A DNA stretch of 64,000 nt, taken from the IMG/VR virus record IMGVR_UViG_3300032268_000658. The stretch is one strand, 5' to 3'. Positions within the stretch are counted from its first letter, which is position 1; every line of letters starts with the position of its first letter. This document shows positions 3,596-61,118 of this stretch, piece by piece. This stretch comes from a virus. Lineage: Duplodnaviria > Heunggongvirae > Uroviricota > Caudoviricetes. Below the pieces are notes generated by a model, which searched no databases, was not told the origin of the DNA, and saw only the letters and a list, made by a program, of their open reading frames with translations. The position numbers and the translations under genes are program-made.

Positions 3596-4204
3596 TTATT
3601 TTTCAAAAATATCAGAATCTGAAGATGTGTTTACAAAATTTTTAAATTGTTCCATATCTTGTTCAGAGCCCAATATGTGAATTTGATTTGGGTTTCTAAC
3701 CGTCACACTTTTTCCACTACCAACTCTTGCACTTCTTATTGTTCCGTCGTATTCAAATTTTGGTAACTCACCTGTTGTATCAAAATTATTTGCCCAATCT
3801 GGATTTAAAGGGTTCTCATACCTACGAATTTCTTTATCATAGTTGGGGTTTTGTTCATTTAAAGGGTTTTTAATATTTAAAACCACAGAATAAACATTTG
3901 GGCCAAATTGGTAACTTAACGGTTCTTCAGAAAACCAAAGATGACTTAGACCCGAACTTGATGGGTCCTTAAATTGTGAAAATTTGTTTTGACTCGAATG
4001 AAACATTATATCTTTAATTTTGCTGTCGGCAAATATTGAATCCAAATATTGCAGATATTGTTCCTTTGTTCCGATGTTTAATAATTCAGGGTGGTTATTG
4101 AATACATATTCAACTTTACTACTACTGATTCCAGAAACTTCTTCACCTTCCGAAATTAATTCCATCAATTCTTTCAATCTTAATATGTTTTCTTGTAAGT
4201 TCAT
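3596..4204 (-). CDS. Hypothetical protein with MNLQENILRLKELMELI leader; its N-terminus is a paralog of the 2816..3589 gene
   Basis: Shares the first ~15 residues with the adjacent gene; no catalytic motif seen. Confidence 0.5.
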   Translation of the reverse strand: MNLQENILRLKELMELISEGEEVSGISSSKVEYVFNNHPELLNIGTKEQYLQYLDSIFADSKIKDIMFHSSQNKFSQFKDPSSSGLSHLWFSEEPLSYQFGPNVYSVVLNIKNPLNEQNPNYDKEIRRYENPLNPDWANNFDTTGELPKFEYDGTIRSARVGSGKSVTVRNPNQIHILGSEQDMEQFKNFVNTSSDSDIFEK

Positions 4205-21255: not shown

Positions 21256-22244
21256 ACTTCCGCAATTATAACTCTTGGTTTCATACCTAATGCCGCTGCA
21301 GTACATAATCTTGTATTACCCGCAACTAAATGATACCTATCCCCAAACTTTAATATTAGTGGAGGATTATATTCTCCTGAAATTAATGCCTTTTTAAGCT
21401 CTAATGGTGATGTCTTATTGTATTTTTTTGCAATCGCAACAACTTTTTTCATCTCCCCTTTCTTAACTTGATTTGATTCTGTATTTTCAAGTTTAATCCA
21501 AACATCTTTTGGTATTACAATCTCTTTGGCTTTGGTAAAAGCTCTTACAACATCTTGAACTGTTATTTCTAATGACCCATCTCTGCTTAAATCCTGTACA
21601 GTCCTTTCAATCTCATCCATCTCATCACTAATGTACTCATCTTTTTGTTTTAAAATAGTTTCTAATTCATCCAGTAATTCAACAAATTCATCATAACTTG
21701 CACTCGCAATATAATCTTTAAGCCATGTATAAGTTTTAAAACCAATTTGAATCATGTATTCAGGGTTACTTTTCATAAACTCTAAAAAGTCATTTACACC
21801 ATTAGATTTTGGAGATATTTCATACAAAATCTCTTCATTAACAGATTCTCCATAAGTAACTTTATTAAATTCAGGGTATTTATTTTCAAATTTTTTAATG
21901 AACACCCCTGATAATATATTACACATATTTTCTTCAGGACCTCCAATGTCTTGAATCTTAACATTATCTTTGACTCCCATCTTTTGATTTTGAAATTCGT
22001 GAACCCACTCATGTGATACAGTTCTTAAGATATCAATTAATAATCTTCCTTTGGCTAATACAAATATTTCATTACCAGGCATTCTAACTCCTGTGGTCAT
22101 AGGGACCTCTCTCGCATCAGTGAATGTGATTTGAATTTTTTTATTTAATGGTAGTTGGGATTGTAAAAATTGGAGAAATTTCTTAATAACTGAAACCTCT
22201 TCCTTCTTTGGGAACTCCCCCGATTTTTTTAAACATACTTTCAT
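21252..22244 (-). CDS. ParB-like nuclease domain protein with an N-terminal HExxH-containing region
   Basis: C-terminal ..RYHLVAGNTRLCTAAALG.. (ParB-type); N-terminal ..TVSHEWVHEFQN.. Confidence 0.45.
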   Translation of the reverse strand: MKVCLKKSGEFPKKEEVSVIKKFLQFLQSQLPLNKKIQITFTDAREVPMTTGVRMPGNEIFVLAKGRLLIDILRTVSHEWVHEFQNQKMGVKDNVKIQDIGGPEENMCNILSGVFIKKFENKYPEFNKVTYGESVNEEILYEISPKSNGVNDFLEFMKSNPEYMIQIGFKTYTWLKDYIASASYDEFVELLDELETILKQKDEYISDEMDEIERTVQDLSRDGSLEITVQDVVRAFTKAKEIVIPKDVWIKLENTESNQVKKGEMKKVVAIAKKYNKTSPLELKKALISGEYNPPLILKFGDRYHLVAGNTRLCTAAALGMKPRVIIAEV

Positions 22245-22288
22245 TATGAATAAATATCAGTTTAAAAATGTTTCTTAACTTATTTTAT

Positions 22289-22633
22289 TTAATAATCTCC
22301 ATCGGAGTCCCATTCAGTTAGGACAAACTCTAATCTTATCCCCGACACATGACCGTAACGGTTTTTCCATGCAGTACCTTTAAGTCCTCCACTTGAAGAA
22401 AAATAAGTCTCATCTGAGGAAAGTTTATTCTCTTTGTCTTTAACTCCTTTCATTGCCGACCTAAGTCTTTCAATTGACGATTCTTTTAACATATCAACAG
22501 TCGGCACTCCTTCTCTCATGGCCCATTGCCAATCAAGAGCCTTCATTGCATTGTGACATTTTTTGAAATCAAAATTCTTTAAGATATTATCAATCATTTT
22601 TTCTTCCATCATATGTTGTGACAATCTTTCCAT
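22289..22633 (-). CDS. Hypothetical protein
   Basis: ORF preceded by a TTTG-N19-TATCTTTG promoter. Confidence 0.5.
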   Translation of the reverse strand: MERLSQHMMEEKMIDNILKNFDFKKCHNAMKALDWQWAMREGVPTVDMLKESSIERLRSAMKGVKDKENKLSSDETYFSSSGGLKGTAWKNRYGHVSGIRLEFVLTEWDSDGDY

Positions 22634-22654
22634 AATAATATTTTTAAATCTTAA

Positions 22655-22700
22655 GTTTATTTTCTACAAAGATAAGAAATAAAAAACCCCCAATCAAATT
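22655..22700 (-). promoter_or_regulatory. Bacteroidetes-type sigma-A promoter (-33 TTTG, 19-nt spacer, -7 TATCTTTG) for the 22289..22633 gene
   Basis: Plus-strand caaagata at 22667-22674 and caaa at 22694-22697. Confidence 0.5.
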
Positions 22701-22707
22701 GAGGGTT
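22679..22707 (-). terminator. Intrinsic terminator (minus strand)
   Basis: aaccccc-aatcaaatt-gagggtt hairpin with an A-run, below the 22711..23706 gene. Confidence 0.55.
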
Positions 22708-22710
22708 CTA

Positions 22711-23706
22711 CTATTTTTTTAAGTGATTAAATTTAAAGAATATGTTTTGTATCGGTGGGTCTTCTCCGTTGTGTCTAAATCTTGTCGCCATGTAGTCTCT
22801 AAGAAGTTCCATGATTTTAACTTTGGCTCTCTCTTCTGCTTTTTCTTTGGTCATACCTTGCATTTCCCCTTTCAAATAATTTTGTGAAGTAGGTTCTTCT
22901 CCATTATCGCCTCTACGAATCACATCAAGAATATCAACTGTAACAATCGCCTTATCACCTTCTTCTTCAATTGATTTAATTTTGAATTTAATATTTGCGT
23001 TGGCTGTCTCCGCGTCTCCCATCCAACTAAAAGCTTTTGCAGTTTTCTTTCTTTTGGTTAATTCAGGCTCAAACTCTTTAAGTTTCTTTAACTTATGTTT
23101 CATTACTTCCTCATGAGTTGCTCCTTGTTTTAACATCTTCATTTCTTCTTGTGATAATAAATAAACTACCTCTTGTAACTCATCCTCCCATTTAACAGGA
23201 TTTGCATTACTCATTTGTTTTGATGTTGAAGATGAATATCTACCAGTAACTTCATACCATTTCTCGTCTTTGAATATGTAAACAGGGTACCAATTATAAG
23301 AAACTACTTCATAGAATGGTTTACCGTTGTAATCTTTACTCCATCGTCCAATTAAATTAGAACCTTTAAATGGTAGTTGCGCAATCGTATATAATTTTGC
23401 TTTTGGGTTTGAAGTTGTTTTACCTTGTTGTTTTCTTGGGTCAATAAAATTACCTTTTGTTAACCCTGAATAGTCCCCATCTTTTCTGTAATTCAATACG
23501 TATAATTCTAATAGATATAATGCATATTCAGATGGAATATTCATATATGGAGCATAATTCTCAATGACTTGAATAAGAGAAGCTCTGGTTTTATTCTTCT
23601 TTTTCTCTTCATTCAACATTTTAAACAACTTAACAATAACGGGCATCGATGGTTCCCTTTGTTCCAATAAAACCTTAAGTACAATTTGAGATATTAATTT
23701 CTCCAT
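22711..23706 (-). CDS. Hypothetical protein
   Basis: ORF. Confidence 0.5.
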   Translation of the reverse strand: MEKLISQIVLKVLLEQREPSMPVIVKLFKMLNEEKKKNKTRASLIQVIENYAPYMNIPSEYALYLLELYVLNYRKDGDYSGLTKGNFIDPRKQQGKTTSNPKAKLYTIAQLPFKGSNLIGRWSKDYNGKPFYEVVSYNWYPVYIFKDEKWYEVTGRYSSSTSKQMSNANPVKWEDELQEVVYLLSQEEMKMLKQGATHEEVMKHKLKKLKEFEPELTKRKKTAKAFSWMGDAETANANIKFKIKSIEEEGDKAIVTVDILDVIRRGDNGEEPTSQNYLKGEMQGMTKEKAEERAKVKIMELLRDYMATRFRHNGEDPPIQNIFFKFNHLKK

Positions 23707-23722
23707 ACCTAATAAATATACT

Positions 23723-24115
23723 TTAGTTCCAGATTCCTTCAGATGTTATTGTTGGTTTGTCATTCCTGTCAATCATAACCCATTCTCCTTTAATAAAACC
23801 CCATGGTTCAAAACATTTCATTACTTGTTCAAGAGTAAACTCTTTGCAACTGTAGATATCAAACTGAACCATAGCTGGTTCCATGTTATCCCAAATGTGT
23901 ATTGACGCGTGTGACGTTGCCAATGTTACTGTTCCTGTCAACCCTTCATTACCAGGGTCTGAAACATAAACACTTGTGGGTCCTGCTACCACTTTCATTC
24001 CTACCGTCTCGACTAAATACTTAAACCATTTATTCAATAATTCCTCTTTCTTAGGAGGATTTGTTACCCAACACTTAACTAGCAAGTGTTGATGGTAAGG
24101 TGTGAATTTTTCCAT
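23723..24115 (-). CDS. Pyruvoyl-dependent decarboxylase of the AdoMetDC (SpeH/SpeD) fold
   Basis: ..GLTGTVTLATSHASIHIWDN..FDIYSC.. parallels B. subtilis SpeH ..[27 protein letters not shown]..; the proenzyme cleavage dipeptide reads T-S instead of E-S. Confidence 0.55.
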   Translation of the reverse strand: MEKFTPYHQHLLVKCWVTNPPKKEELLNKWFKYLVETVGMKVVAGPTSVYVSDPGNEGLTGTVTLATSHASIHIWDNMEPAMVQFDIYSCKEFTLEQVMKCFEPWGFIKGEWVMIDRNDKPTITSEGIWN

Positions 24116-24158
24116 TAAAAATATGTACTTTTTTTAATAGATATATATCACTATATTA

Positions 24159-24190
24159 AGAAAAACCCACACTTTTTAGGGTGTAGGTTA
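24159..24190 (-). terminator. Intrinsic terminator (minus strand)
   Basis: cccacac-ttttta-gggtgtagg hairpin with an A-run. Confidence 0.5.
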
Positions 24191-24198
24191 GATTATTT

Positions 24199-24936
24199 TT
24201 ACATGGTTCTCAAGATGCTCTCAGTCATCCCTGTCCACTTCTTAATTTGTTTTCTTGGAATCCAAAATTCCATCTCACCAATCTCCTCAACTCTCTTCAA
24301 ATAGTCCTCACGGAAACGAGTCGCTTCAGAAGCATCTTTGATATAAGGAACCTTCATGTGAGCTGCACATATCTTACCCATCCCTGTTAACATTGAAAAC
24401 TCATCTGTCAAATCTCTCATACAAGAAGTACAGATTTTACCTCTTTTAATGGTCATCTTACCTGCGAACTTAACCGCTTTTGGACTAACAGCTAACAAAC
24501 GAGTGATATCAATCAACATTGGGTTGAACTCCAACTCGTATGTCTCTTTCAATAGTTGACCAACTTTACGACCTATGATGATAGTCTCACCTGTAGTAGG
24601 CCAATTCATACGGATGGTCTTCTCTTTATCTTCCTCTTTTTGAATCTGAGCTAAAGCAACAGATTTTTGTTTCTCAGTCAAAGTACCATACTTTTGGAAC
24701 TTAGATGCAATGTCCTTAACGAACGTGTTCTCACCTGTGTAGTCAACGATGCGTTTCAAGTCTTCAGTCATTTCTTCGGTTTTAACGATTGCAACCGCGT
24801 TAAGACATTTCTCAACTGCGGCTAATTGGTTTGGAGTCAAACTGCCGTATTTTGATACCGCGTCTTTCATCTTGATGACGAAAGAATTTTGACCTTGGTA
24901 GTTACGAACTTTTTCGATGGTAGAGGTAGATGTCAT
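24199..24936 (-). CDS. Hypothetical protein with an internal duplicated ~45-aa module
   Basis: VIKMKDAVSKYGSLTPNQLAAVEKCL versus FVKDIASKFQKYGTLTEKQKSVALAQI; strong promoter upstream. Confidence 0.55.
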   Translation of the reverse strand: MTSTSTIEKVRNYQGQNSFVIKMKDAVSKYGSLTPNQLAAVEKCLNAVAIVKTEEMTEDLKRIVDYTGENTFVKDIASKFQKYGTLTEKQKSVALAQIQKEEDKEKTIRMNWPTTGETIIIGRKVGQLLKETYELEFNPMLIDITRLLAVSPKAVKFAGKMTIKRGKICTSCMRDLTDEFSMLTGMGKICAAHMKVPYIKDASEATRFREDYLKRVEEIGEMEFWIPRKQIKKWTGMTESILRTM

Positions 24937-24954
24937 AGTTTTATCGTTTTTGTG

Positions 24955-24992
24955 AATACAAAGATAAAGAATCCATTCGATATTACAAAATA
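24955..24992 (-). promoter_or_regulatory. Bacteroidetes-type promoter (TTTG-N19-TATCTTTG) plus conserved 5' UTR
   Basis: caaagata at 24959-24966 and caaa at 24986-24989; UTR ttcacaaaaacgataaa shared with the next gene. Confidence 0.55.
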
Positions 24993-25020
24993 AAAATCCC
25001 CTTTCGGGGATTTATTTTTT
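24989..25020. terminator. Bidirectional intrinsic terminator
   Basis: aaatcccc-tttc-ggggattt perfect hairpin flanked by an A-run and a T-run. Confidence 0.65.
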
Positions 25021-25021
25021 A

Positions 25022-25480
25022 TTAGTTTTGAGAGAATGCTTTGTCCGCCCAAGTCTTAGCTCCGAATCGACCCCAAATGTTCATGTCACACATGTCAGGG
25101 AATGATTGTCTCATATCTCCCACAGTCATCACTTCCAAGAACCCTTTGTCGATTGAGTACCATTTACCACCTTTAGTCGTGTATACGTTCATCCATTGAC
25201 CGAACTCGTTCTTTACTTGGATATTAACAAGACAGTTTTTAGTCCAACCTCTCATCATATCAGATGCGGTACCTTTACTGTCGTGGATGTTAACGAACCC
25301 CGCTTGACATTTGTTTGCGATACGGAATTCGTACTCTTTATTCACGTCTTTGATGTGGTTTGAAACCATTACAGAGACTCTCTTGTTCTTTACTGTGGTG
25401 TCAAAAGAACCGTAGAATACGTCTCCTGCTAATGTTCCTGTTGTTACTTTGATTACTGAAGGGGTAGTGGTGTTGGTCAT
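25022..25480 (-). CDS. Hypothetical protein
   Basis: ORF with a near-identical promoter and 5' UTR to the 24199..24936 gene. Confidence 0.55.
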   Translation of the reverse strand: MTNTTTPSVIKVTTGTLAGDVFYGSFDTTVKNKRVSVMVSNHIKDVNKEYEFRIANKCQAGFVNIHDSKGTASDMMRGWTKNCLVNIQVKNEFGQWMNVYTTKGGKWYSIDKGFLEVMTVGDMRQSFPDMCDMNIWGRFGAKTWADKAFSQN

Positions 25481-25499
25481 ATCTTTATCGTTTTTGTGA

Positions 25500-25536
25500 A
25501 TACAAATATAGTGATTCTAAATTTACCAGCCAAAAT
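25500..25536 (-). promoter_or_regulatory. Bacteroidetes-type promoter (TTTG-N20-TATATTTG) plus the same conserved 5' UTR
   Basis: caaatata at 25503-25510 and caaa at 25531-25534. Confidence 0.5.
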
Positions 25537-25958
25537 TATTTTTCACAAATATTCGGTTGATAACATCCTTGTCCTCCACCCTCAACATATCCTTCTCTTA
25601 AATCGATATGAGTAGAACGTAAATAAGGAGTTTCTTTACCACATATTACACATTTATCAAATGCGTCAGGTCTCACTTCTTCTTCTTTAAGTAGACATCC
25701 CAAATGGTCATAACCGACCAAATAGTCGTAATCTATCTCTGAGGTATCTCCTCCACAGATAGAACAGGTAAACGGACGATTTATAGACTTAACAAGACCG
25801 TCTTCACCTATGGTGAGTCCGAAGTGTTCATCATCGTATTGAGGTCCTTCTTGGTCCCTCCTGGCTTGCCAGAATTTATTTCTAACCAATCTACCCAATA
25901 TGGCATCGTTTGGTGTATCGAGGACTTCTTTTTCAGTTAAAATTACATTAATTGACAT
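25536..25958 (-). CDS. Zinc-ribbon protein
   Basis: CSICGG...C...CVICGKE...C Cys pairs. Confidence 0.5.
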   Translation of the reverse strand: MSINVILTEKEVLDTPNDAILGRLVRNKFWQARRDQEGPQYDDEHFGLTIGEDGLVKSINRPFTCSICGGDTSEIDYDYLVGYDHLGCLLKEEEVRPDAFDKCVICGKETPYLRSTHIDLREGYVEGGGQGCYQPNICEK

Positions 25959-26411: not shown

Positions 26412-27272
26412 ATGAGCGATAAAATAAAAAGATTAGCCAAGAATGTTACCGAGTTACTTGCAAATACAGAAACTCCACAGGAAACCTATTATAGCTTGAT
26501 TCAGGTTATGAGAAAACAAAAGGACTATTTTCAACATATGTCCCCTGAGAATATAGTTAAATTATCATTTTATTGTTATTCCTACGCACAAACAAATTCA
26601 TTTGAGGAGTCAGATAAAATGTTGAATAATATTGGATTTGCAGTTCTTTTTAACAACTCTGGTGATAATCACAGAGAGGAATGTGATAATTGTAGTGGTA
26701 ATGGTGAAACAGACTGTCACAATTGTGATGGTACTGAGAACGTTGAATGTGATGAGTGTTCTGGTGAAGGTAGAATAACCTGTGACTATTGTGATGGTGA
26801 TGGTACTGTCAAAGAAGATGGTGAAATCGTTACATGTCCAGAATGTGATGGTAACGAAGAAGTTACGTGTACACAATGTTATGGAAATGGTGAAGTAAGT
26901 TGTGACAGTTGTAGGAGTGGCAAAGAAATTTGTGAATATTGTGACGGTAATGGTGAAATAGAAACCAGCGATTATGTATACGAAAGATATTTTATCGTAA
27001 CTTGGAACAGACAAATCAAAGAAAGATGTGAATACACAGAAGGAGATACCGACATAGCATTTAGTGAATATGATTTTGACAGATTGAGAGATGAATACAT
27101 AAAACTAAAAATTGATGAAAAATGGGTTAAATTTGTCAATTGGGTCAATATTAATGAAATATATTGTAGTTACTATAATGACAACCCAAAAATGTATCTG
27201 ACTAACGATATGGAATTGGACACATTCAAGTCAGATGATATGACAGCCTACACAAACTACACAAAAAAATGA
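26412..27272 (+). CDS. Protein with 8 tandem CxxCxGxG zinc-finger repeats (DnaJ central-domain type)
   Basis: CDNCSGNGETDCHNCDGTENVECDECSGEGRITCDYCDGDGT...CPECDGNEEVTCTQCYGNGEVSCDSCRSGKEICEYCDGNGE. Confidence 0.6.
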   Translation: MSDKIKRLAKNVTELLANTETPQETYYSLIQVMRKQKDYFQHMSPENIVKLSFYCYSYAQTNSFEESDKMLNNIGFAVLFNNSGDNHREECDNCSGNGETDCHNCDGTENVECDECSGEGRITCDYCDGDGTVKEDGEIVTCPECDGNEEVTCTQCYGNGEVSCDSCRSGKEICEYCDGNGEIETSDYVYERYFIVTWNRQIKERCEYTEGDTDIAFSEYDFDRLRDEYIKLKIDEKWVKFVNWVNINEIYCSYYNDNPKMYLTNDMELDTFKSDDMTAYTNYTKK

Positions 27273-28753: not shown

Positions 28754-29293
28754 TTATTCTAATATTAATTGTCCTGGATTTTTATTTCCAGAGTCTGTAA
28801 TTAAACGATATGTTTTTATTTCACCTAAATCAGGGAACTTAACAGCTTCAACTAAAATCCCCCATTTAGCAACTTCATCATTCACCGCAGGAGTAACAAT
28901 GTTTGTTAGGTCAACTAAATCATCCCAATTAGTAGTCTCAACAATATCACGAATAATACCTTGAGTCATATCTACTAATACGTCATTAGCATGCATTACA
29001 TTCAATAAGAAACTATGAACATTAACAACATGGTACCTAACTATTGAAGTTAGAACCACTGAACGTTCGTCTAATGTAGTAAGAGTTTGAGGACTCAAAT
29101 TAACGGTTTGCGTTATGACAGGTGTAACCCAAATCTTATCAAAAAATGGAACCTTCCAATTTAATCCAGGAGAAACGACACGATGAAATCTACCCGTCTT
29201 AAGATGAACCCCCATTTCCCATTGGTCCACAATTTTAAATGGAAGAATGTCATGAATAAAGGTTACTACGAGGTCAATTAGTTTGTCAAACAT
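28754..29293 (-). CDS. Hypothetical protein
   Basis: ORF. Confidence 0.5.
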   Translation of the reverse strand: MFDKLIDLVVTFIHDILPFKIVDQWEMGVHLKTGRFHRVVSPGLNWKVPFFDKIWVTPVITQTVNLSPQTLTTLDERSVVLTSIVRYHVVNVHSFLLNVMHANDVLVDMTQGIIRDIVETTNWDDLVDLTNIVTPAVNDEVAKWGILVEAVKFPDLGEIKTYRLITDSGNKNPGQLILE

Positions 29294-30630: not shown

Positions 30631-30662
30631 TTCTTTATGAAAAATAGTTAAACTATTTTTTG

Positions 30663-30734
30663 TTGCGAAGGATGGATTCGAACCACCGACCTAAAGGTTA
30701 TGAGCCTTCCGAGCTACCACTGCTCTACCTCGCG
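30663..30734 (-). tRNA. tRNA-Met (anticodon CAT) with a C1xA72 mismatch (initiator-like); tRNA-Ile(LAU) cannot be excluded
   Basis: Folded by hand: acceptor CGCGAGG/CTTCGCA, D-arm GAGC-AGTGGTA-GCTC, anticodon arm GAAGG-CTCATAA-CCTTT, T-arm GGTGG-TTCGAAT-CCATC, discriminator A. Confidence 0.8.
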
Positions 30735-31126: not shown

Positions 31127-31549
31127 TCATGTTAATATAATTTCTGCGAGTCTGTGGAAGTAATCTCCCGAAGTCTCAGGTTTAATTTCATCTAAAGTAA
31201 AGTATCCAGAGTCAGTGTGTTCTTCACCGTCAATAGCATTAACCAAATCAGGAATGATTGGTTCCTCTACTTCTAATAAATACACGTACATCAACCCTTT
31301 AACTTTTTTACCGTCACGAGTGTGTCTTGGAATAAGTCCGATGAACTGAAGTTCTTTATCATCAATGTTCACGTCAGTCTCTTCTAAAAACTCTCTCTTT
31401 GCCCCTTCTTGAGGTGTTTCCCCATTATCTTCCATCTTTCCTCCAGGGATTGACCACATACCAGGACTTGAGCCTTGGCTATTTCTCTTACATAAAAGAA
31501 TTTTGTCCCCACATTTAACCATTACACCGACGTGTCTTTTGTTTTCCAT
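31127..31549 (-). CDS. Nudix hydrolase
   Basis: Nudix box GGKMEDNGETPQEGAKREFLEETDV (GX5-6EX7REUXEEXGU). Confidence 0.75.
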   Translation of the reverse strand: MENKRHVGVMVKCGDKILLCKRNSQGSSPGMWSIPGGKMEDNGETPQEGAKREFLEETDVNIDDKELQFIGLIPRHTRDGKKVKGLMYVYLLEVEEPIIPDLVNAIDGEEHTDSGYFTLDEIKPETSGDYFHRLAEIILT

Positions 31550-34796: not shown

Positions 34797-35645
34797 TTAT
34801 AAACCTAATTCCATTTGTCGATTCTTATCTATAAAGTGTTGAACTCTTTCTTTAGCCACTTTAGTATAATTCTCACTTAGTTCTATTCCTATCCATCGTC
34901 TTCCGCTAACTTCAGCTGCGACTAAACTAGTCCCACTACCTGTAAATGGGTCAAGAACAATATCATTTTTATATGTAAGAATTTTAATAGCATTCATTGG
35001 AATATCCATTGAAAAAGTGGCTTTAGTTTGTTGTTTAGTGTCCGCAAAGTATTCCCATTGACCATATACCAAACTCATAAACTCTTTCTTATCTTCTTCT
35101 TGGTATACCATCTTCTGTTTGATTGTACCATCTTCTTGTTCTAAATCAACCAACTCTCCTTTCCATTGTGGTTCACCCTTAACTTTTTTAATACGGTCTT
35201 TCTTATAAGCCAAGATTACACATTCTTTTGGATTATAGATATAAGGACTTGATGGGCTCATCCATGAACCCCAAGCAGTAGTCTTACTTCTATGTGGTGA
35301 GTTCTCGTCAAGGTCTACAAGTCCATAGAATTTAAACCCAAGATTTTTCATGATTTGATAAAACTCAGACATGAATAATATTCTTCCACCTCTATCCTGT
35401 ACGTTTACTTCATATGGAATGTTTACCGCAATTCTTCCGTCATCTTTAAGAATTCTATAAGATTCAGACAACCAATCTTTAGTAAACTGCCAATAATCCT
35501 CCATTGATTGTCTATCATTATAAGAATCATAATCAATCCCCACGTTGTATGGAGGTGATGTTACTATCAAGTCAACACATGACTCAGGAAGATTCGCCAT
35601 CACTTTAACACAATTTCCTTGGATTATTTTATTTGTTTCTAACAT
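34797..35645 (-). CDS. DNA methyltransferase, beta class, SPPY motif (N4-cytosine type likely)
   Basis: Motif IV DLIVTSPPY precedes motif I LDPFTGSGTS; SPPY is typical of N4C methyltransferases. Confidence 0.75.
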   Translation of the reverse strand: MLETNKIIQGNCVKVMANLPESCVDLIVTSPPYNVGIDYDSYNDRQSMEDYWQFTKDWLSESYRILKDDGRIAVNIPYEVNVQDRGGRILFMSEFYQIMKNLGFKFYGLVDLDENSPHRSKTTAWGSWMSPSSPYIYNPKECVILAYKKDRIKKVKGEPQWKGELVDLEQEDGTIKQKMVYQEEDKKEFMSLVYGQWEYFADTKQQTKATFSMDIPMNAIKILTYKNDIVLDPFTGSGTSLVAAEVSGRRWIGIELSENYTKVAKERVQHFIDKNRQMELGL

Positions 35646-42985: not shown

Positions 42986-43741
42986 ATGAACTTAAAGAAA
43001 CCAGGCAGTAGAATCTTCACAACAAATTTATTTGCAGATTTTATATTATCTAAAATACCTCAAACCGAACAATCAATAATAAAAGTTATAGACTGTAATA
43101 ATTTTTACGTAATTAAAGGAAAAACAACTTCTAACGAAATATTAGATTTAGTCACTTTAACCTCAGAATTTGAAAAAAAATATTCAAATATTATTAGTGA
43201 CGTTAAAATAAGTCACACAATTGATATCATTGAATATGGTTCTAAAATGGGAGTTCAACTTGAATTGGAACACACATATCATTTTAGCGACAACTGTTCT
43301 TACACTCAATCACAAATTGATTTATTTAATTCGAATGAATCTTCTTATGGTTTTAATCACACCCCTAATGAAATTACTGATGAAGAATTAGTATTTGTTT
43401 CTGAATTCCCTCATGGATATTCATTGGCTCAAGGTAGACTTTTATATTATTACGGTAAGCACTTGTTCTATAGTGTCCCATCATCATATCTATACCATTC
43501 ATTAACATTTAAATTAAGTGCATTGAAAGATGAGGATGGTGATAATATTTTTACAGTTTTTAATTATTCATCAAACAGTTATGACGACAGACTTAGGTCA
43601 GCGATTTTAGATGTATTTGATTTTGATATGACTTGGCTAAGTACTGAAATAAAAAAAGTGGATTGGAGTATTGAACTCACAAATCCACTTGAAGAGTATT
43701 CTTTTATTAAAAAGAAAAATAAAGATTTAATACTATTTTAA
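42986..43741 (+). CDS. Hypothetical protein
   Basis: ORF. Confidence 0.5.
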   Translation: MNLKKPGSRIFTTNLFADFILSKIPQTEQSIIKVIDCNNFYVIKGKTTSNEILDLVTLTSEFEKKYSNIISDVKISHTIDIIEYGSKMGVQLELEHTYHFSDNCSYTQSQIDLFNSNESSYGFNHTPNEITDEELVFVSEFPHGYSLAQGRLLYYYGKHLFYSVPSSYLYHSLTFKLSALKDEDGDNIFTVFNYSSNSYDDRLRSAILDVFDFDMTWLSTEIKKVDWSIELTNPLEEYSFIKKKNKDLILF

Positions 43742-44037
43742 AGTAGTCCTACGTTTTTTCTGTGTTTTTTTATAATATCAACCGCCTCAGTAAGTTCATT
43801 ATAGTTTCTGTCAGGTGCGTATAAAAATGACTTATGTTTTTTGCCATCACCTTCAATAACTAATAACGCAGGTATCATATCATTATTAGTTATTTCACTG
43901 AACATATCATATTCTTTTTTATATTCGTCGATATCTCTGTCAAAAAATTCAATACCTTCTTTGGTCAACATATCTTTAAAATCCGTACAAAACGGACATC
44001 CTTTCATTGTATAAACTATAACATTTAACTCGTTCAT
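43738..44037 (-). CDS. Glutaredoxin-like protein
   Basis: CPFC active site near the N-terminus, ~99 aa. Confidence 0.7.
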   Translation of the reverse strand: MNELNVIVYTMKGCPFCTDFKDMLTKEGIEFFDRDIDEYKKEYDMFSEITNNDMIPALLVIEGDGKKHKSFLYAPDRNYNELTEAVDIIKKHRKNVGLL

Positions 44038-44042
44038 TTTAT

Positions 44043-44363
44043 TTAATTTAATAAAGAAAGAACCTGAGCTGGTTGCATTACTCCCGTTTGAGAGAAAACT
44101 TCATTTCCTTCCTTGAATATTTTTATTGTTGGTACACTTCTGATACCCAACTCTCTTGAGAATTCCATGTCAGACTCAACATCATATTTGTATACACCAT
44201 ATTTTGGTGAACCTGTAGATTCCTTAATTAAAGATTCATTTACTCTTTCAAGATTAGTTAACATAACCTTACACGGGCCACACCATACCGCAAATAAATC
44301 CAGTATGAAGTTTTCCCCTTCATTAATTTTTTGTTTGATTTCCTCTGATGTCAGTTGTTGCAT
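44043..44363 (-). CDS. Thioredoxin
   Basis: WCGPC active site, 106 aa. Confidence 0.75.
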   Translation of the reverse strand: MQQLTSEEIKQKINEGENFILDLFAVWCGPCKVMLTNLERVNESLIKESTGSPKYGVYKYDVESDMEFSRELGIRSVPTIKIFKEGNEVFSQTGVMQPAQVLSLLN

Positions 44364-48924: not shown

Positions 48925-49767
48925 CTAATAATTCAATATAAGTAGCTCTTCACCCATATTTTGTTTTACACCTTTTTTTGCGGCAGCAGCTTTTGCGAAT
49001 TCCTTTTTCTCCCATCTGAACGTAGTTTCAGGGTACCATGTGTGTAATAAGTCAAAATCGTAATACGATAAACTAAATTTACCCTGTACGTTATTTAATA
49101 CGTTTGCAAGTCTTTCGTGGTCTTCTCTATCAAAATCATGATTATTATAATAGTTCTCCGTCTTCCAATATGGAGGGTCCAAATAGATATAAGTCGATGG
49201 TGAATCATACTTATCAATAACCGCTTGGAAGTCTAAATTCTCAACATGACTGATTCTTAAGAAATGTTCAACCCAATCAGGTTTACTTAACTTATCTCTA
49301 AAGGTTAGATATTTTGACTTGTATTTACCTTTTAAATCAATGAATGAACTTGTTTCAGGTTTAGACCCTGAAAATACTTGTGACAATACGTAAGCATATT
49401 TAGCGGCAATAACATAATCATAAGGTTGTACCCTGAAGTCTTGAGCAAAAATTTCAGCTTGGAACCTGATAAATTGTTCTTTATATATTGCAGGTGTTAC
49501 ACTAACCCCTTGTTGTTGACAAGGTATTGCATTGACCTCATCTAACAATTGAGACGGGTTCTGTAAACATTGGAACAAGTTATAGTTTAATGGATTAAAG
49601 TCGTTATAAACGACTCTCTTTAAGTTTGGGAACTGATTTAAGTTCGTATTGAAGAAGCACCAAAACATTCCTGAGAATGGTTCAACGTATGTCTCCATGT
49701 CGTTAGGGTAGAACGGTACAATCCATTTACCAATTTTAGATTTACCTCCGATGTATGATAATGCCAT
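48925..49767 (-). CDS. Dam-family (D12 class) N6-adenine DNA methyltransferase
   Basis: N-terminal SYIGGKSK...VEPFSG and C-terminal YLDPPYW. Confidence 0.75.
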   Translation of the reverse strand: MALSYIGGKSKIGKWIVPFYPNDMETYVEPFSGMFWCFFNTNLNQFPNLKRVVYNDFNPLNYNLFQCLQNPSQLLDEVNAIPCQQQGVSVTPAIYKEQFIRFQAEIFAQDFRVQPYDYVIAAKYAYVLSQVFSGSKPETSSFIDLKGKYKSKYLTFRDKLSKPDWVEHFLRISHVENLDFQAVIDKYDSPSTYIYLDPPYWKTENYYNNHDFDREDHERLANVLNNVQGKFSLSYYDFDLLHTWYPETTFRWEKKEFAKAAAAKKGVKQNMGEELLILNY

Positions 49768-49887: not shown

Positions 49888-50031
49888 ATGTCAGAATGTA
49901 AAAAATGTAATCAAAAGCCAACATCTAAAGGCCAATACGCAACAATATTTTTTGGTGCTTATTTACTATTTGCAGCAATCTACGGCACAATCGCTTTAAT
50001 TCATGATTTGGTTGACACCTTTACTAAATAG
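49888..50031 (+). CDS. Candidate 47-aa membrane peptide MSECKKCNQK...(not in the ORF track)
   Basis: Preceded by TAATTTTG (-7 type) ~30 nt upstream; CxxC followed by one TM helix. Confidence 0.3.
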   Translation: MSECKKCNQKPTSKGQYATIFFGAYLLFAAIYGTIALIHDLVDTFTK

Positions 50032-50947
50032 GTCGTTCAAACTTAACGTTTAACTTAACATACATATCCCCGCCATTATATCCCTTACCTTTAAGTCTTA
50101 AAGGTCTTGAGGTGTCAAATAAACGTGGTGAACCCATACTTAAATCCCCATTTGGGTGTGGTATTAGGAACTTATCTTTTTGGACCTCTTCTAAATTAAG
50201 GTAAAGATTATATATTAAATCGTTATTCAATTTTTCAAACCCGTCTTTACTCACAACTTCAATTTGAATAACTAAATCCCCATAGTCTCCGTGTTTAAAA
50301 TCACCAGCATTTTCAAGTTTTAAATACTGTCCTGAATCAATACCAACAGGTAATTTTATTTTAACACTATTCGCCAAAGATTTGGTACCATTCCCTCCAC
50401 AGTTATAACACTTGTGTACCAAAGTGTATCCTTTACCACCACAGGTACTACAATTAGTTCTAATTTGTTGTACCATGAATCCAGTACCATATGTTTTTAC
50501 TTCAAACCCTTGTCCCTTACATGTCGTACATTGTTGTTGTTCCCCACCTGTTCCACTACAAATGTTACAATGGTTTTCCTTAATATAATGAATATCTTTT
50601 TCCACACCTAAGTATGATTCAATAGGAGTAATAACTACCTTCACTATTTTATCAGGGGCGTTTTTTCTTTTTTGTTGTCTGAACGGAGAACCTCCATTCC
50701 TAAACATCTGTGAGAACATATCTTCATAAGCTGTTCCTTCGAATGGATTTGATTTTGAACTATCGTATTTGGCTTTCTTTTCTGGATTACTTAGTACGTC
50801 ATATGCCTCAGCAATTCCCTTAAATTGTTCTGCTCCATCAGGATTTACATCGGGGTGATATTTCTTTGAAAGTGCTCTGTATGATTTTTTAATCTCATCT
50901 GCGGACGCTTTCTCTTCAACTTCTAAAATTTTATAGTAATCTTTCAT
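50024..50947 (-). CDS. dnaJ: DnaJ-like co-chaperone (J domain plus CxxCxGxG zinc finger)
   Basis: YYKILEV...YHPDVNP (HPD) and four CxxCxGxG repeats. Confidence 0.75.
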   Translation of the reverse strand: MKDYYKILEVEEKASADEIKKSYRALSKKYHPDVNPDGAEQFKGIAEAYDVLSNPEKKAKYDSSKSNPFEGTAYEDMFSQMFRNGGSPFRQQKRKNAPDKIVKVVITPIESYLGVEKDIHYIKENHCNICSGTGGEQQQCTTCKGQGFEVKTYGTGFMVQQIRTNCSTCGGKGYTLVHKCYNCGGNGTKSLANSVKIKLPVGIDSGQYLKLENAGDFKHGDYGDLVIQIEVVSKDGFEKLNNDLIYNLYLNLEEVQKDKFLIPHPNGDLSMGSPRLFDTSRPLRLKGKGYNGGDMYVKLNVKFERPI

Positions 50948-52369: not shown

Positions 52370-52554
52370 TTTGTATATAGATATGTGATTATGTAACTTA
52401 TTGATAGTCCGAGGAAAATAAGCTCCCTGTTACTATAGACCAAAGGTTTTGGTTCTTTTTGTAACAGGGCACCTATAAACTTTGTGACATTTTTCAATGA
52501 CACTAATATTGTGAAAACAAATATAAAAAAATATATTGTATCAATATTATGCAT
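52366..52554 (-). CDS. Small membrane protein
   Basis: Two hydrophobic helices. Confidence 0.35.
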   Translation of the reverse strand: MHNIDTIYFFIFVFTILVSLKNVTKFIGALLQKEPKPLVYSNRELIFLGLSISYIITYLYTK

Positions 52555-52729
52555 TCTTTTCTGTCTTGTTGTGCTCTAAAACTTCGCCTCTTAATTGTTG
52601 AAGTAATGCTTTCAACTCTTGTGCAGATTTTCTAGCTCTGGTACCAGCACTTTTGTTTCCGTTAAAGAATTTTGTTGTGTCCACTGAAAGTAATTCAGTT
52701 AATACTTTAATTTGTTCTAATGTTTCCAT
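52547..52729 (-). CDS. Histone H1-like (Hc1-family) DNA-binding protein
   Basis: ..KFFNGNKSAGTRARKSAQELKALL.. resembles the Bacteroidetes Hc1/histone H1-like core GNKAAGTRARK. Confidence 0.5.
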   Translation of the reverse strand: METLEQIKVLTELLSVDTTKFFNGNKSAGTRARKSAQELKALLQQLRGEVLEHNKTEKNA

Positions 52730-56624: not shown

Positions 56625-57159
56625 GTACCTTACCCCATTTAGATTTAAACTTCTGGTAGTACTTTTTTAGTTTGTTTATTAAGTCAAGGAACTCATCATC
56701 AACTTTAATCATTTGACCGTTGATATATATTCCACTGTCTTCTCCGATTGTGAATATGAAGTCCAAATCTCCGTCAATAAGTTTTCCTGACCACTCAACA
56801 TTGTTTGCATAGACATTCAGAGTATTGAAGTCAGCTAAGTCTGATACTTCAGTTACAAATTCGTCCATAGTTTCTTGGAAGGCAATTTTATCATCAGTTG
56901 TGATATCTAAATTACTTCTGTCTTTTCCGTGTAAAGCTAAGATACCACCAGATATTCTATATTTCTGTACCTTATCTTGTTGAACTGGTTTTTCACCGTC
57001 TTCAACTTCTGTCTTGGCAGTTTCGTACTCAGCATCTTGAGTAATTCTACTCTCAACATCACTGGCTACGTTTATTTGTGTGCTTTGTTCAAATAAGAAC
57101 TTAGACTTCTTCAATAGAGATTTAATTTCGTCGTATCTCTCGTTATGCAAATTGCTCAT
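56587..57159 (-). CDS. Hypothetical protein
   Basis: ORF. Confidence 0.45.
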   Translation of the reverse strand: MSNLHNERYDEIKSLLKKSKFLFEQSTQINVASDVESRITQDAEYETAKTEVEDGEKPVQQDKVQKYRISGGILALHGKDRSNLDITTDDKIAFQETMDEFVTEVSDLADFNTLNVYANNVEWSGKLIDGDLDFIFTIGEDSGIYINGQMIKVDDEFLDLINKLKKYYQKFKSKWGKVLANRKKTKESPE

Positions 57160-57748
57160 TTTTTAATAGTTTTCTAAAGGTTTCGAAGTTAAACGATGGG
57201 CTTAGGTCAGTGAAGTCTGAATCAAAGTTACTCTTGGTAACTATTCCTTCAAAGTTCTCAACACCAGCTACTTTGGTATTATGTCCTATACATCTATTTT
57301 CTATTCGAAGAGTTTTGTTTAATTGGTTACACAAATCCGCAGTTGATTCAATCTGAGAAGTCGTATAAGGTTCCCAAAAAAAGTAGTCTCTCCATTTTTT
57401 TTCGTACACCTGTTTATTATAAATACTTCCTTTCCAGTTAATATAAGAGTTGGTTAATGGTTTCTTTTCCAACCATCCCAAATTTTCTAAACATATAATA
57501 ATTGAATTACGATTTATGTTTTCGTTGTTGAAATAATTGGTGTGTGATATGTCAGATAGTAGTTGTAGAATCCTACCGTCTTTGGTAATAACATAATTGG
57601 GTATCCTATCAAACTTCCCGTTATACCTAAATTTAAGGGAGGCCAAGTATTCCTCGACCTCCCTTGATGTATGACATAGGATTATTTGTTTCTTTTTTTT
57701 CTGCTTACCCGTTGGTTTAAAATTTCCATATTTTTGGATATTAAGCAT
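57143..57748 (-). CDS. N-acetylmuramoyl-L-alanine amidase (Amidase_2/PGRP-like) endolysin candidate
   Basis: ..KQIILCHTS.. / ..NYVITKDGRILQLL.. / ..SIIICLEN.. / ..YTTSQIESTADLCNQL..IGHNT.. follow the amidase_2 block order (IVIHHTA / YHYLIDRDGTIYQLV / IGIEL / YT.AQ...L..L...I.GH). Confidence 0.5.
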   Translation of the reverse strand: MLNIQKYGNFKPTGKQKKKKQIILCHTSREVEEYLASLKFRYNGKFDRIPNYVITKDGRILQLLSDISHTNYFNNENINRNSIIICLENLGWLEKKPLTNSYINWKGSIYNKQVYEKKWRDYFFWEPYTTSQIESTADLCNQLNKTLRIENRCIGHNTKVAGVENFEGIVTKSNFDSDFTDLSPSFNFETFRKLLKNEQFA

Positions 57749-58804: not shown

Positions 58805-59602
58805 TTATAGATATTCGAAAAGAATAGCTGTTTCATTTCTTAATTTTCGAAGAGCTTTTTCCTTAATCTGTCGAACCCTTTCTTTGGTTAAATCAAAATC
58901 ATTACCTATGTCTTCCAAGGTTCTTGTTGAACCAGACAACCCGAAATAATCTTGAATAATTATTTTTTCTCTCTCATCCAAAACGTCCAACATTGATAAT
59001 AACTTCTCTTTTAATGTCTGTTCCGTAGATAGATTGGCATCTGCCAAATCAGCATTAGGGTTATTCAACACATCCAATAACGTATCTCCCTCCTCGTTCA
59101 ATGGACTATCCAAGTTCACCGTATAAGGTAAGTTTACGAATTTTTCAGGTAGGTCAACACCTGCCTTCTCCAATTCTTTCTTTGCTTTATGCAATTCTTG
59201 AACCACATTTACTGGTAGACGGATGGTTCTTGCATTTTCATTCAATGATTGCAAGATAGATTGGCGAACCCACCAAACGGCATAAGAGATAAATCTTAAT
59301 TGTTTAGACCAATCGAAGTGCTCGATTGCTTTCATCAATCCAAGGTTACCTTCCGCAATTAAATCAGGTAGGTCCAACCCTTGGTTTTGATATTGTTTAC
59401 TTACGGTAATCACAAAACGTAGATTACCTTCCAAAAGTTCTTTTTGAATTTCTTTTGTTTCTTCTTCTGTTATAAAACCAGATAGCATTCTTTCAGCTAA
59501 CTCTCGTTCTCTTTCAGGAGTCATTACTTTCAGTTTACGAATGTCCTTCAAGTAATTACTAATCTCTTCTTGATTGATAGGAATTGATGATTTTTCTTTC
59601 AT
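58805..59602 (-). CDS. RNA polymerase sigma factor, sigma-70 family (group 3-like)
   Basis: Region 2 DLIAEGNLGLMKAIEHFD...FISYAVWWVRQSI; region 4 TLEDIGNDFDLTKERVRQIKEKALRKLR. Confidence 0.75.
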   Translation of the reverse strand: MKEKSSIPINQEEISNYLKDIRKLKVMTPERERELAERMLSGFITEEETKEIQKELLEGNLRFVITVSKQYQNQGLDLPDLIAEGNLGLMKAIEHFDWSKQLRFISYAVWWVRQSILQSLNENARTIRLPVNVVQELHKAKKELEKAGVDLPEKFVNLPYTVNLDSPLNEEGDTLLDVLNNPNADLADANLSTEQTLKEKLLSMLDVLDEREKIIIQDYFGLSGSTRTLEDIGNDFDLTKERVRQIKEKALRKLRNETAILFEYL

Positions 59603-60160: not shown

Positions 60161-60697
60161 TTAATTAGGCGCTTTTAATCCGACAATTTCTGAAAAACTG
60201 GGATATAATCTATCATATACCTCTATGATAGTATCTCTATGTTGGATATTCATAAATTCACCCTTCCCTGGTAATGTTAACTCAGTTGTAATCGCATAAG
60301 GAACACAGGATGTTTTTAACGCTTTCTCAAAATCAACAGATGCTTTAGCCTGCAAGGTATTCTCCCTTATAATCTCAACAATCTCAATCTCATCACGACC
60401 CGCATACCTTGACTCAGAAAACCTTGCTTGAACTGAATTTTTGGTATACCCTATCTTTATCATATCCACTCCTCCAACCCTCATGTGAACCAAATACACA
60501 ATGTGAGGACCAAAACAAGTGTCCACCCTATTGTATATATAATCTATAATTTTGGGGTATTGTCGAATAATATCAGTCAACACCTCAATTTTTACATCTA
60601 TGTTACCCGTCTTTGATTCTTTGTATCTATTATATAATTCCATATTAAAAATATATTTTTCCTTTTGCACCTGAATGTTGTTCGTACCATTTACCAT
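60161..60697 (-). CDS. Hypothetical protein
   Basis: ORF. Confidence 0.45.
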   Translation of the reverse strand: MVNGTNNIQVQKEKYIFNMELYNRYKESKTGNIDVKIEVLTDIIRQYPKIIDYIYNRVDTCFGPHIVYLVHMRVGGVDMIKIGYTKNSVQARFSESRYAGRDEIEIVEIIRENTLQAKASVDFEKALKTSCVPYAITTELTLPGKGEFMNIQHRDTIIEVYDRLYPSFSEIVGLKAPN

Positions 60698-61118
60698 CTT
60701 TATCTAACCAAACATATGGGTTGGTTGGTTCCGCAGTCCACCTATATTGAGAATAAAAATCAAAGTCTTTCTTCAATAGGTTAGACTTGTGTGAGTCATG
60801 AAACTTTTGATTACCCCACCAATCAGGATAGGTTACAGATTCATCAATCACTTCCTTAGTCATGGTGTTCTTAAACCCACGACGTACCCACTCGTCAATA
60901 CTTGCATTCAAGTACATCTTGAGTAAGGGTACGTGTTGTCTCCACATAACAGAACATGGATGGTTTAACCACCCTTTGTAGGGGGTACCATCCAACTTTG
61001 GTCTGCCAGTAATTGCATTTATAATTTGAAAGGTCTCGACACGTTGTTTACCTAAACGTTTGTTGTCGAGAACCCTTAATGATTCTGTAATATCAGAGTA
61101 TGGTAAGAATGTTTGCAT
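60645..61118 (-). CDS. Possible pyrimidine-dimer DNA glycosylase (DenV/endonuclease V-like)
   Basis: N-terminal ..LPYSDITESLRVLDNKRLGKQRVETFQI..NHP..MW.. loosely parallels the T4 endoV N-terminus and related families. Confidence 0.3.
   Translation of the reverse strand: MQTFLPYSDITESLRVLDNKRLGKQRVETFQIINAITGRPKLDGTPYKGWLNHPCSVMWRQHVPLLKMYLNASIDEWVRRGFKNTMTKEVIDESVTYPDWWGNQKFHDSHKSNLLKKDFDFYSQYRWTAEPTNPYVWLDKDGKWYEQHSGAKGKIYF

Follow-up and report, generated by a model that had tools for sequence, protein, structure and literature searches.

The window analyzed here, the whole 64,000-nucleotide stretch of the Caudoviricetes record IMGVR_UViG_3300032268_000658, carries on its minus strand a small gene whose product is a predicted class 1b proenzyme of the S-adenosylmethionine decarboxylase (AdoMetDC) fold (Table 1). 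We propose that this protein, which falls within a clade marked by a Thr-Ser cleavage junction, probably decarboxylates a basic amino acid by means of a pyruvoyl group, with arginine as the favored substrate. It most probably belongs to the pyruvoyl amino-acid decarboxylases of AdoMetDC origin that were reported in 2023, and stands closest to the arginine decarboxylase lineage of the pelagiphages. The reference enzyme of that lineage, from phage HTVC201P (AXH71538), is a pyruvoyl-dependent enzyme of the SpeDA type that converts L-arginine to agmatine (Li et al., PNAS 2023, PMC9992855). The purified protein decarboxylates L-arginine with a kcat/Km of 290 M-1 s-1 and is inactive on ornithine and lysine (PMC9992855); the published enzymes of the AdoMetDC-derived type have kcat/Km values of about 10^2-10^3 M-1 s-1. 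Another homologue, BAR31446, was reported on qualitative data as an arginine decarboxylase without AdoMetDC activity (PMC9992855).

Fold, catalytic residues and predicted cleavage site

Family searches assigned the protein to PF02675 (AdoMet_dc) with an E value of 7.7e-12 and 45.9 bits against a cut-off of 25 bits, and to PHROG 3125, 'S-adenosylmethionine decarboxylase', with an E value of 3.3e-13. A profile of its clade matched the AdoMetDCs of Aquifex aeolicus (PDB 2iii) and Thermotoga maritima (PDB 1tlu) with E values of 1e-8 to 1e-6. An AlphaFold2 model built from 30 homologues has a mean predicted local distance difference test score of 89.4. Structural similarity search using Foldseek revealed that its best PDB matches are all AdoMetDCs, the top ones being the T. 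maritima structures 1tlu and 1vr7 with template modelling (TM) scores of 0.70-0.79; for 1tlu the TM scores are 0.72/0.79, with a root mean square deviation (rmsd) of 2.2 Å. The AdoMetDC fold named in the earlier note is thus borne out by family, profile and structural comparison alike.

In HMMER alignments to the two solved AdoMetDCs, the window segment ...TLATSHASIHIWD... falls on ...LLAESHISIHTWP... of A. aeolicus and on the corresponding stretch of T. maritima, so that Thr67-Ser68, within the cleavage-region motif ...GLTGTVTLATSHASIHIWDNMEPAMVQFDIYSC..., occupies the position of Glu62-Ser63 in T. maritima and of the Glu-Ser pair in A. aeolicus. On these alignments, Ser68 is the equivalent of the self-cleaving serine and is preceded by Thr67 instead of glutamate. 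In the model, Thr67-Ser68 sits in the turn that joins the strands of residues 58-65 and 69-75. Cleavage there would give a β chain of residues 1-67 and an α chain of residues 68-130, with computed masses of 7.52 and 7.48 kDa. The residue before the cleaving serine takes part in the cleavage reaction through its carbonyl only, and active Thr-Ser enzymes exist; threonine is therefore compatible with processing. His73 and Cys90 align with His68 and Cys83 of T. maritima, which are essential for processing and also involved in catalysis (PMC10407285). Downstream, where the earlier note had reported altered substrate-binding residues, the alignment indeed has Trp-Asp-Asn in place of the Trp-Pro-Glu of AdoMetDCs, followed by a loop that is two residues longer.

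The gene is genuine and evolves under purifying selection: its motif is kept among homologues, its differences from near-identical copies are synonymous and its nonsynonymous divergence from a more distant orthologue is low compared to saturated synonymous divergence. A word search of a public protein collection gave 1,868 homologues, the 120 best of which are 79-98% identical to the window protein. All 120 retain LATSH, His73 and Cys90, and the longer signature of TGTV(T/P)LATSH, His73, Trp75 and D-(I/L)-Y-S-C-K is likewise kept in 120/120; in an alignment of 30 sequences, Ser68, His69, His73 and Cys90 are invariant. Compared to two other contigs, the gene shows three nucleotide differences, synonymous in every case. 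Against an 80%-identical orthologue, the nonsynonymous rate (dN) is 0.125 and the synonymous rate (dS) is saturated.

A Thr-Ser junction shared across a very large clade

Searched exhaustively with phmmer, a set of 1.84 billion cluster representatives (50%-identity clusters) gave 721 clusters at E <= 0.001. Among the best 150 of these 721, the motif is readable in 132, and 126 of the 132 have the Thr-Ser junction. The equivalents of His73 and Cys90 are invariant in all 132. The clade consensus reads I-E-T-S-H-x3-H-x-W-D-E-x2-P-x3-Q-(F/L)-D-(V/L)-Y-(S/T)-C, which differs from true AdoMetDCs in the Asp that replaces Pro after the Trp and in a loop longer by two residues. The window protein fits the core of this pattern exactly, with T-S-H-x3-H-x-W-D, nine residues including the two-residue insertion, and D-x-Y-[ST]-C. 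The cleavage motif of HTVC201P is ...IETSH...; over the wider region this protein reads ...AIETSHIAFHSWDEDEPAMVQLDVYTC... and the window protein ...TLATSHASIHIWDNMEPAMVQFDIYSC..., and its loop opposite W75-D86 is WDEDEPAMVQLD. The Thr-Ser junction is a mark of a very large clade and not peculiar to the window gene. The replacement of Glu by Thr at the cleavage site, as given in the earlier note, stands, with the correction that it is no oddity of a single gene, since HTVC201P and almost the whole clade share it.

Within the clade, the window protein belongs to a subclade of the form 'LATSH...WDN', with Ala66, Asn77 and a conserved Glu79. Ala66 and Asn77 depart from the 'IETSH...WDE' consensus, which was derived in the present analysis and is not a published one. 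The Glu residues of that consensus (E...DE) are found in HTVC201P and in 111 of the 120 cellular members listed below, and the variability at the acidic positions is far greater in viral relatives than in cellular ones. Among cultured phages, relatives were found only in pelagiphages (phages of Pelagibacter), at identities of 33-48%.

Homologues of 257-382 residues were considered as possibly informative fusions and set aside, as the added regions either are GIY-YIG homing-endonuclease domains or match nothing, and say nothing about function. In other phages (proteins P0179, P0188, P0198, P0239 and P0250), a Thr-Ser or Phe-Ser homologue and a GIY-YIG (SegE-like) homing endonuclease are called as one ORF (open reading frame). 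These joint ORFs probably reflect an endonuclease inserted beside the gene, or a merged gene call. Phe-Ser takes the place of Thr-Ser in four clusters.

The window protein departs from true AdoMetDCs

We compared the protein with bona fide AdoMetDCs in four defining features, none of which it displays. The first is the NCBIfam equivalog model TIGR03330, whose cut-off is 75.65 bits. The window protein scores 32.2 bits and stays below that cut-off, the HTVC201P arginine decarboxylase scores 38.4 bits and two cellular Thr-Ser proteins score 44.7 and 51.0 bits, compared to 133.1 bits for the experimentally validated SpeD of cyanophage S-PM2 and 133.8 bits for a canonical bacterial SpeD. The second is a Pro, completely conserved in true AdoMetDCs and lost in arginine decarboxylases (PMC10407285), that comes directly after the aromatic residue downstream of the catalytic His; Asp76 takes this position in the window protein. 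The third is the Glu-Ser junction, replaced by Thr67-Ser68.

The fourth is phylogenetic position, assessed with neighbor-joining trees only (200 bootstraps, about 125 aligned columns). The trees were anchored by T. maritima SpeD, two cyanophage SpeDs, and the SpeD and SpeDC halves of two fusion proteins (sequences from the supplement of PMC10407285), and also took in pelagiphage proteins, cluster representatives and cellular members. A Thr-Ser-His clade that includes the window protein was recovered in 141/200 and 168/200 bootstraps of the two trees; in the latter (84%) it comprises the window protein, six pelagiphage proteins and 114 cellular proteins. The window protein and its close relatives form a 100%-supported group, which joins other 'L(A/S)TSH' sequences more loosely. 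The SpeDC domains branch outside the Thr-Ser-His clade; clade, SpeDC domains and speH_1 of Microcystis phage MaAM05 together lie apart from all bona fide SpeDs in 196/200 and 199/200 bootstraps. Phylogeny had been put forward in the earlier note as a check, with clustering among bona fide SpeH proteins as the outcome that would speak against a new function, and the separation obtained is the opposite. Taken together, the window protein is, as judged from these sequence features, not a bona fide SpeD/SpeH. The TIGR03330 score and the grouping with HTVC201P also agree with the earlier suggestion that the substrate may not be S-adenosylmethionine (SAM).

Cellular members and their polyamine gene context

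The 2023 papers treated the pelagiphage-type Thr-Ser-His form as a phage enzyme only. A degenerate DNA pattern for T-S-H-x3-H-x-W-D-x9-D-x-Y-[ST]-C, run against species-representative bacterial and archaeal genomes (GTDB), revealed this form in at least 120 species-level genomes (loci L020-L139; e.g. L036 287-658, L069 4571-4954 and L109 2932-3351). The carriers include a complete Pseudothioglobus chromosome, Thioglobus, HIMB59-type Alphaproteobacteria, Hyphomicrobium and megabase-scale contigs of Phycisphaerae, and the neighboring genes include housekeeping ones such as an argS that passes its equivalog model. The window protein shares 33-45% identity (median 37%) with all but two of the cellular members listed. 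The remaining two copies, with identities of 80% and 55%, lie on contigs of only 3.2 and 1.5 kb and may represent phage DNA that was binned into metagenome-assembled genomes. Cellular genomes are a likely reservoir or source of the phage genes.

Clustering of neighboring ORFs placed a spermidine-synthase gene directly beside the Thr-Ser gene in 28 of the 120 loci listed. In five loci (L026, L073, L086, L106 and L109; e.g. L109 2932-4682), a Thr-Ser homologue, a canonical Glu-Ser SpeD and SpeE follow one another in this order on one strand, with SpeD scoring 133.8 bits against TIGR03330 and SpeE 393 bits against NF002010. The clustering of a SpeD paralogue with SpeD and SpeE is the signature by which Li et al. 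recognized neofunctionalized SpeD paralogues. In such an operon the extra decarboxylase would supply a diamine and the canonical SpeD would supply decarboxylated SAM. This gene order connects the clade with polyamine synthesis and speaks against AdoMetDC activity, with the Thr-Ser protein of these five operons as a putative extra decarboxylase. At 23 loci of marine Gammaproteobacteria, a short and divergent gene resembling SpeE, scoring 211 bits and hence below the 260-bit cut-off, lies on the opposite strand at 13-97 bp from the Thr-Ser gene, and a second SpeD is absent from the 8 kb examined.

Substrate and alternative explanations

The chief alternative to arginine is ornithine, decarboxylated by an enzyme that would act like SpeDC and make putrescine directly. 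Bacterial and other SpeDC enzymes carry four diagnostic residues, Gln, Thr, Phe and Tyr (Li et al., JBC 2023, PMC10407285, Fig. 8), and that paper places HTVC201P beside the SpeDC branch. We deduced these positions from two proven bacterial SpeDC domains and not from the published logo: Gln at Ser -5, Thr at Ser -1, Phe immediately behind the catalytic His and Tyr two positions ahead of the conserved Asp. The corresponding residues are Val, Thr, Ile and Gln in the window protein and Gln, Thr, Ser and Gln in HTVC201P. Threonine, itself one of the four diagnostics (PMC10407285), is thus the only one present in the window protein, and the other candidate site for the Tyr, three residues beyond the Cys, is not a Tyr either; across the 132 nearest clusters, the number of diagnostics present never exceeds two. 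Moreover, the window protein has the ...TSHxxxHxWD... motif with the loop insertion, as in the arginine enzyme, whereas SpeDC reads ...ETSLxSGHFAN... without insertion, and the SpeDC domains branch outside the Thr-Ser-His clade. A proven SpeDC domain searched by tblastn against the phage genome collection gave no match. On the other side, the five freshwater phage homologues described as HTVC201P-like are ornithine decarboxylases (PMC9992855), and the Thr-Ser/SpeD/SpeE operon has no agmatinase within 3 kb, in which it resembles the published SpeDC-SpeD-SpeE clusters. Since the diagnostic residues, the ...ETSLxSGHFAN... motif, Trp-Asp and the loop insertion all separate the window protein from SpeDC, an arginine-type enzyme is favored and arginine appears the more likely substrate of the two; an ornithine decarboxylase seems unlikely, though it is the strongest of the competing explanations.

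A somewhat less probable alternative is a pyruvoyl decarboxylase whose substrate is new for the fold, such as lysine, 2,4-diaminobutyrate or another amino acid, owing to neofunctionalization within the jumbo-phage subclade. Ala66, Asn77 and the conserved Glu79 depart from the main 'IETSH...WDE' type, and these positions vary far more in viral relatives than in the cellular members listed, of which 111/120 are of the E...DE form. The 'LATSH...WDN...E79' subclade could thus represent a further neofunctionalization toward a substrate other than SAM, arginine or ornithine, with the acidic residues around the pyruvoyl site rearranged accordingly, but we regard this as improbable: nothing positive points to any particular substrate, the characterized homologues tested on lysine were all inactive, and the catalytic core and the loop are otherwise near those of the arginine enzyme.

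A divergent but genuine AdoMetDC that supplies decarboxylated SAM is very unlikely. Pfam and all public annotations name the family AdoMetDC, and in the 23 gammaproteobacterial loci the Thr-Ser homologue is the sole SpeD-like gene within 8 kb beside the spermidine-synthase-like gene. Against this stand the 32 bits with TIGR03330, far from its cut-off and from the 133 bits of proven SpeDs, the missing Pro, and the five loci that hold the homologue and a canonical SpeD in one operon. In addition, HTVC201P restored no spermidine in an E. coli delta-speD strain, and its tested relatives failed in the same way (PMC9992855). No SpeE gene was found among the scanned ORFs of the 64-kb window either, a point tempered by a genome of perhaps 300 kb and by a host SpeE that could serve. 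Least credible of all is a non-catalytic remnant, that is, a pseudoenzyme or non-processing protein: nothing specific speaks for it apart from the C-terminal SpeD domain without active-site residues known in some bacterial fusion proteins, and Ser68, His73 and Cys90 are strictly conserved in the 120 homologues, with substitutions overwhelmingly synonymous.

Several observations weigh against arginine decarboxylation as proposed here. HTVC201P, the sole kinetically characterized relative, is only 37% identical to the window protein. The window protein has Ala where HTVC201P has Glu (Ser -2), Val where it has Gln (Ser -5) and Asn where it has Glu after W-D; with its subclade differing near the Ser and in W-D-E, its substrate pocket may differ from that of HTVC201P. 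The call between arginine and ornithine is based on published diagnostic residues and two bacterial SpeDC domains from a supplementary figure, and the internal nodes of the trees are without resolution, as expected from about 125 aligned columns. Finally, scans with Pfam and PHROG of 30 further window ORFs and with Pfam of the called genes from about 13.7 to 64 kb, which left out ORFs shorter than 100 aa in 1-14 kb, gave no agmatinase, agmatine deiminase, SpeE, homospermidine synthase, acetyltransferase or other polyamine gene.

Proposed mechanism and implications

From the family, fold, catalytic residues, clade placement, purifying selection and polyamine context of the cellular relatives, we infer self-cleavage, substrate and physiological role as follows. 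The hydroxyl of Ser68 would attack the carbonyl of Thr67, giving two chains of about 7.5 kDa each and converting Ser68 to a pyruvoyl group covalently bound at the N-terminus of the α chain, with His73 and Cys90 assisting the self-cleavage and later the catalysis. Schiff-base formation between the amino group of the substrate and the pyruvoyl group would be followed by loss of CO2, as in AdoMetDC (family enzymology cited in PMC10407285). Asp76, and possibly Glu79, in the modified loop may bind the arginine or ornithine substrate by its cationic side chain. The resulting agmatine or putrescine might be turned into polyamines by host enzymes during phage replication and DNA packaging.

If so, the neofunctionalization of AdoMetDC to arginine or ornithine decarboxylase would extend to an uncultured lineage of jumbo marine phages. 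For thousands of sequences in this highly abundant gene family, the public annotation 'S-adenosylmethionine decarboxylase' is probably incorrect. The window gene is small and simple to express, and the cellular Thr-Ser-His loci, which offer a likely cellular source and testable operons, may interest polyamine specialists.

Genome context

The window is part of a 116-kb scaffold in the European Nucleotide Archive. Orthologues of 80% identity occur on two contigs, of 276 and 337 kb (L017 and L018), within a module that is syntenic; this assigns the source to an uncultured lineage of jumbo phages. Searches with 4 kb around the gene (megablast) and with an 812-aa ORF (tblastn) gave no relative among 50,697 phage genomes. 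Almost no large window ORF has a Pfam or PHROG family, and the decarboxylase gene itself sits among minus-strand ORFs without assigned function (Table 1).

A consensus scan of 22200-25600 found eight terminator-like hairpins compared to 1.7 expected; they are located between genes, which suggests many short transcription units. The 331-aa ORF downstream is probably co-transcribed with the decarboxylase gene. It was rejected as a functional partner, having no family match and, although present in near-identical contigs, giving way to other genes in relatives at 80% identity. In related contigs, the 286-aa ORF with zinc-finger repeats is likewise kept close to the decarboxylase gene. Involvement in DNA hypermodification, in which the enzyme would decarboxylate a base-appended amino acid as part of such a pathway, finds no support in the window.

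Table 1. Positions of the decarboxylase gene, its predicted functional parts and other features of the window
Feature	Position	Strand	Basis or remark
Decarboxylase ORF	23723..24115	-	130 codons plus stop; the ORF fills the interval exactly
Predicted AdoMetDC-fold proenzyme, 130 aa, 14.99 kDa	23723..24115	-	ORF, Pfam, PHROG, AlphaFold2 model, Foldseek
Thr67-Ser68 codons, predicted serinolysis (self-cleavage) site	23912..23917	-	Aligned to solved AdoMetDCs
Thr67 codon	23915-23917	-	Read from sequence
Ser68 codon, predicted future pyruvoyl cofactor	23912-23914	-	Read from sequence
His73 codon, equivalent of T. maritima His68 (processing, catalysis)	23897..23899	-	Alignment
Cys90 codon, equivalent of T. 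maritima Cys83 (processing, catalysis)	23846..23848	-	Alignment
Loop W75-D76-N-M-E79-P-A-M-V-Q84-F-D86	23858..23893	-	Alignment
331-aa ORF, 16 bp downstream of decarboxylase gene	22711..23706	-	No Pfam or PHROG family
Upstream gene	24199-24936
Terminator-like hairpin between upstream gene and decarboxylase gene	24164..24189	-	Consensus pattern match only
Terminator-like hairpin after 331-aa ORF	22683-22709		Consensus pattern match only
Terminator-like hairpin	24994-25013		Consensus pattern match only
202-aa ORF, sub-threshold match to ART-PolyVal (ADP-ribosyltransferase domain of polyvalent proteins)	3596-4204	-	E 3.9e-5, 24.9 bits against a 31.2-bit cut-off
286-aa ORF, CxxCxGxG zinc-finger repeats (BSD2_CRD / DnaJ central domain)	26412-27272	+
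Band_7	28754-29293
tRNA-Met (CAT), single	30662-30734	-
NUDIX	31127-31549
DNA methyltransferases, two	48925-49767; 34797-35645
Glutaredoxin	43738-44037
Thioredoxin	44043-44363
DnaJ, complete	50024-50947
Hc1 histone-like	52547-52729
Amidase_2	57143-57748
Sigma-70-like	58805-59602
T4 endonuclease V-like	60645-61118

Comparison with known systems

Compared to class 1b AdoMetDCs (T. maritima 1TLU, B. subtilis SpeH and S-PM2 SpeD), the window protein shares the fold (TM 0.72-0.79, rmsd 2.2 Å), the processing Ser in an inter-strand turn and the same His and Cys. However, it differs in the change from Glu-Ser to Thr-Ser and from W-P-E to W-D-N, in the longer loop, in an identity of about 15% in the Foldseek structural alignments, in its failure against TIGR03330 and in a tree separation of 98-99.5%.

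The arginine decarboxylase of Sulfolobus solfataricus, a crenarchaeal SpeDA set beside the window protein by description only, is likewise a pyruvoyl-dependent AdoMetDC paralogue acting on arginine (PMC9992855, PMC10407285), but it emerged independently in the published tree (PMC10407285).

SpeDC enzymes, found in bacteria, archaea and freshwater phages, have in common with the window protein the Thr-Ser junction, the fold, the conserved Ser, His and Cys, the lack of Pro after the aromatic residue and a sister position in the trees. They differ in the ...ETSLxSGHFAN... motif and in having neither Trp-Asp nor the loop insertion. Of their diagnostic residues, Gln, Phe and Tyr are missing from the window protein.

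A row of polyamine genes was also seen in the jumbo cyanophage MaAM05, where speH_2, speH_1 and speE follow one another (L009 871-2133). Its speH_2 is canonical and 58.6% identical to T. maritima SpeD, and its speH_1 has the Glu-Ser junction but lacks the Pro. MaAM05 speH_1 is possibly neofunctionalized, in which case the row would be a phage-borne SpeD-paralogue cluster.

HTVC201P differs from the window phage in genome setting: its gene lies in the replication module of a 41-kb podovirus, with an exonuclease and a ribonucleotide reductase on either side, whereas the window gene lies in a jumbo phage among genes without family. Nevertheless, the two proteins are alike in size (122 and 130 aa), in the Thr-Ser-His motif, in the equal spacing of His and Cys, in the replacement of W-P by W-D, in the two-residue loop insertion, in the EPAMVQ(L/F)D(V/I)Y(T/S)C segment and in the N-terminal HxHLL...PPK; they share a clade in the trees, and both are encoded by marine phages.

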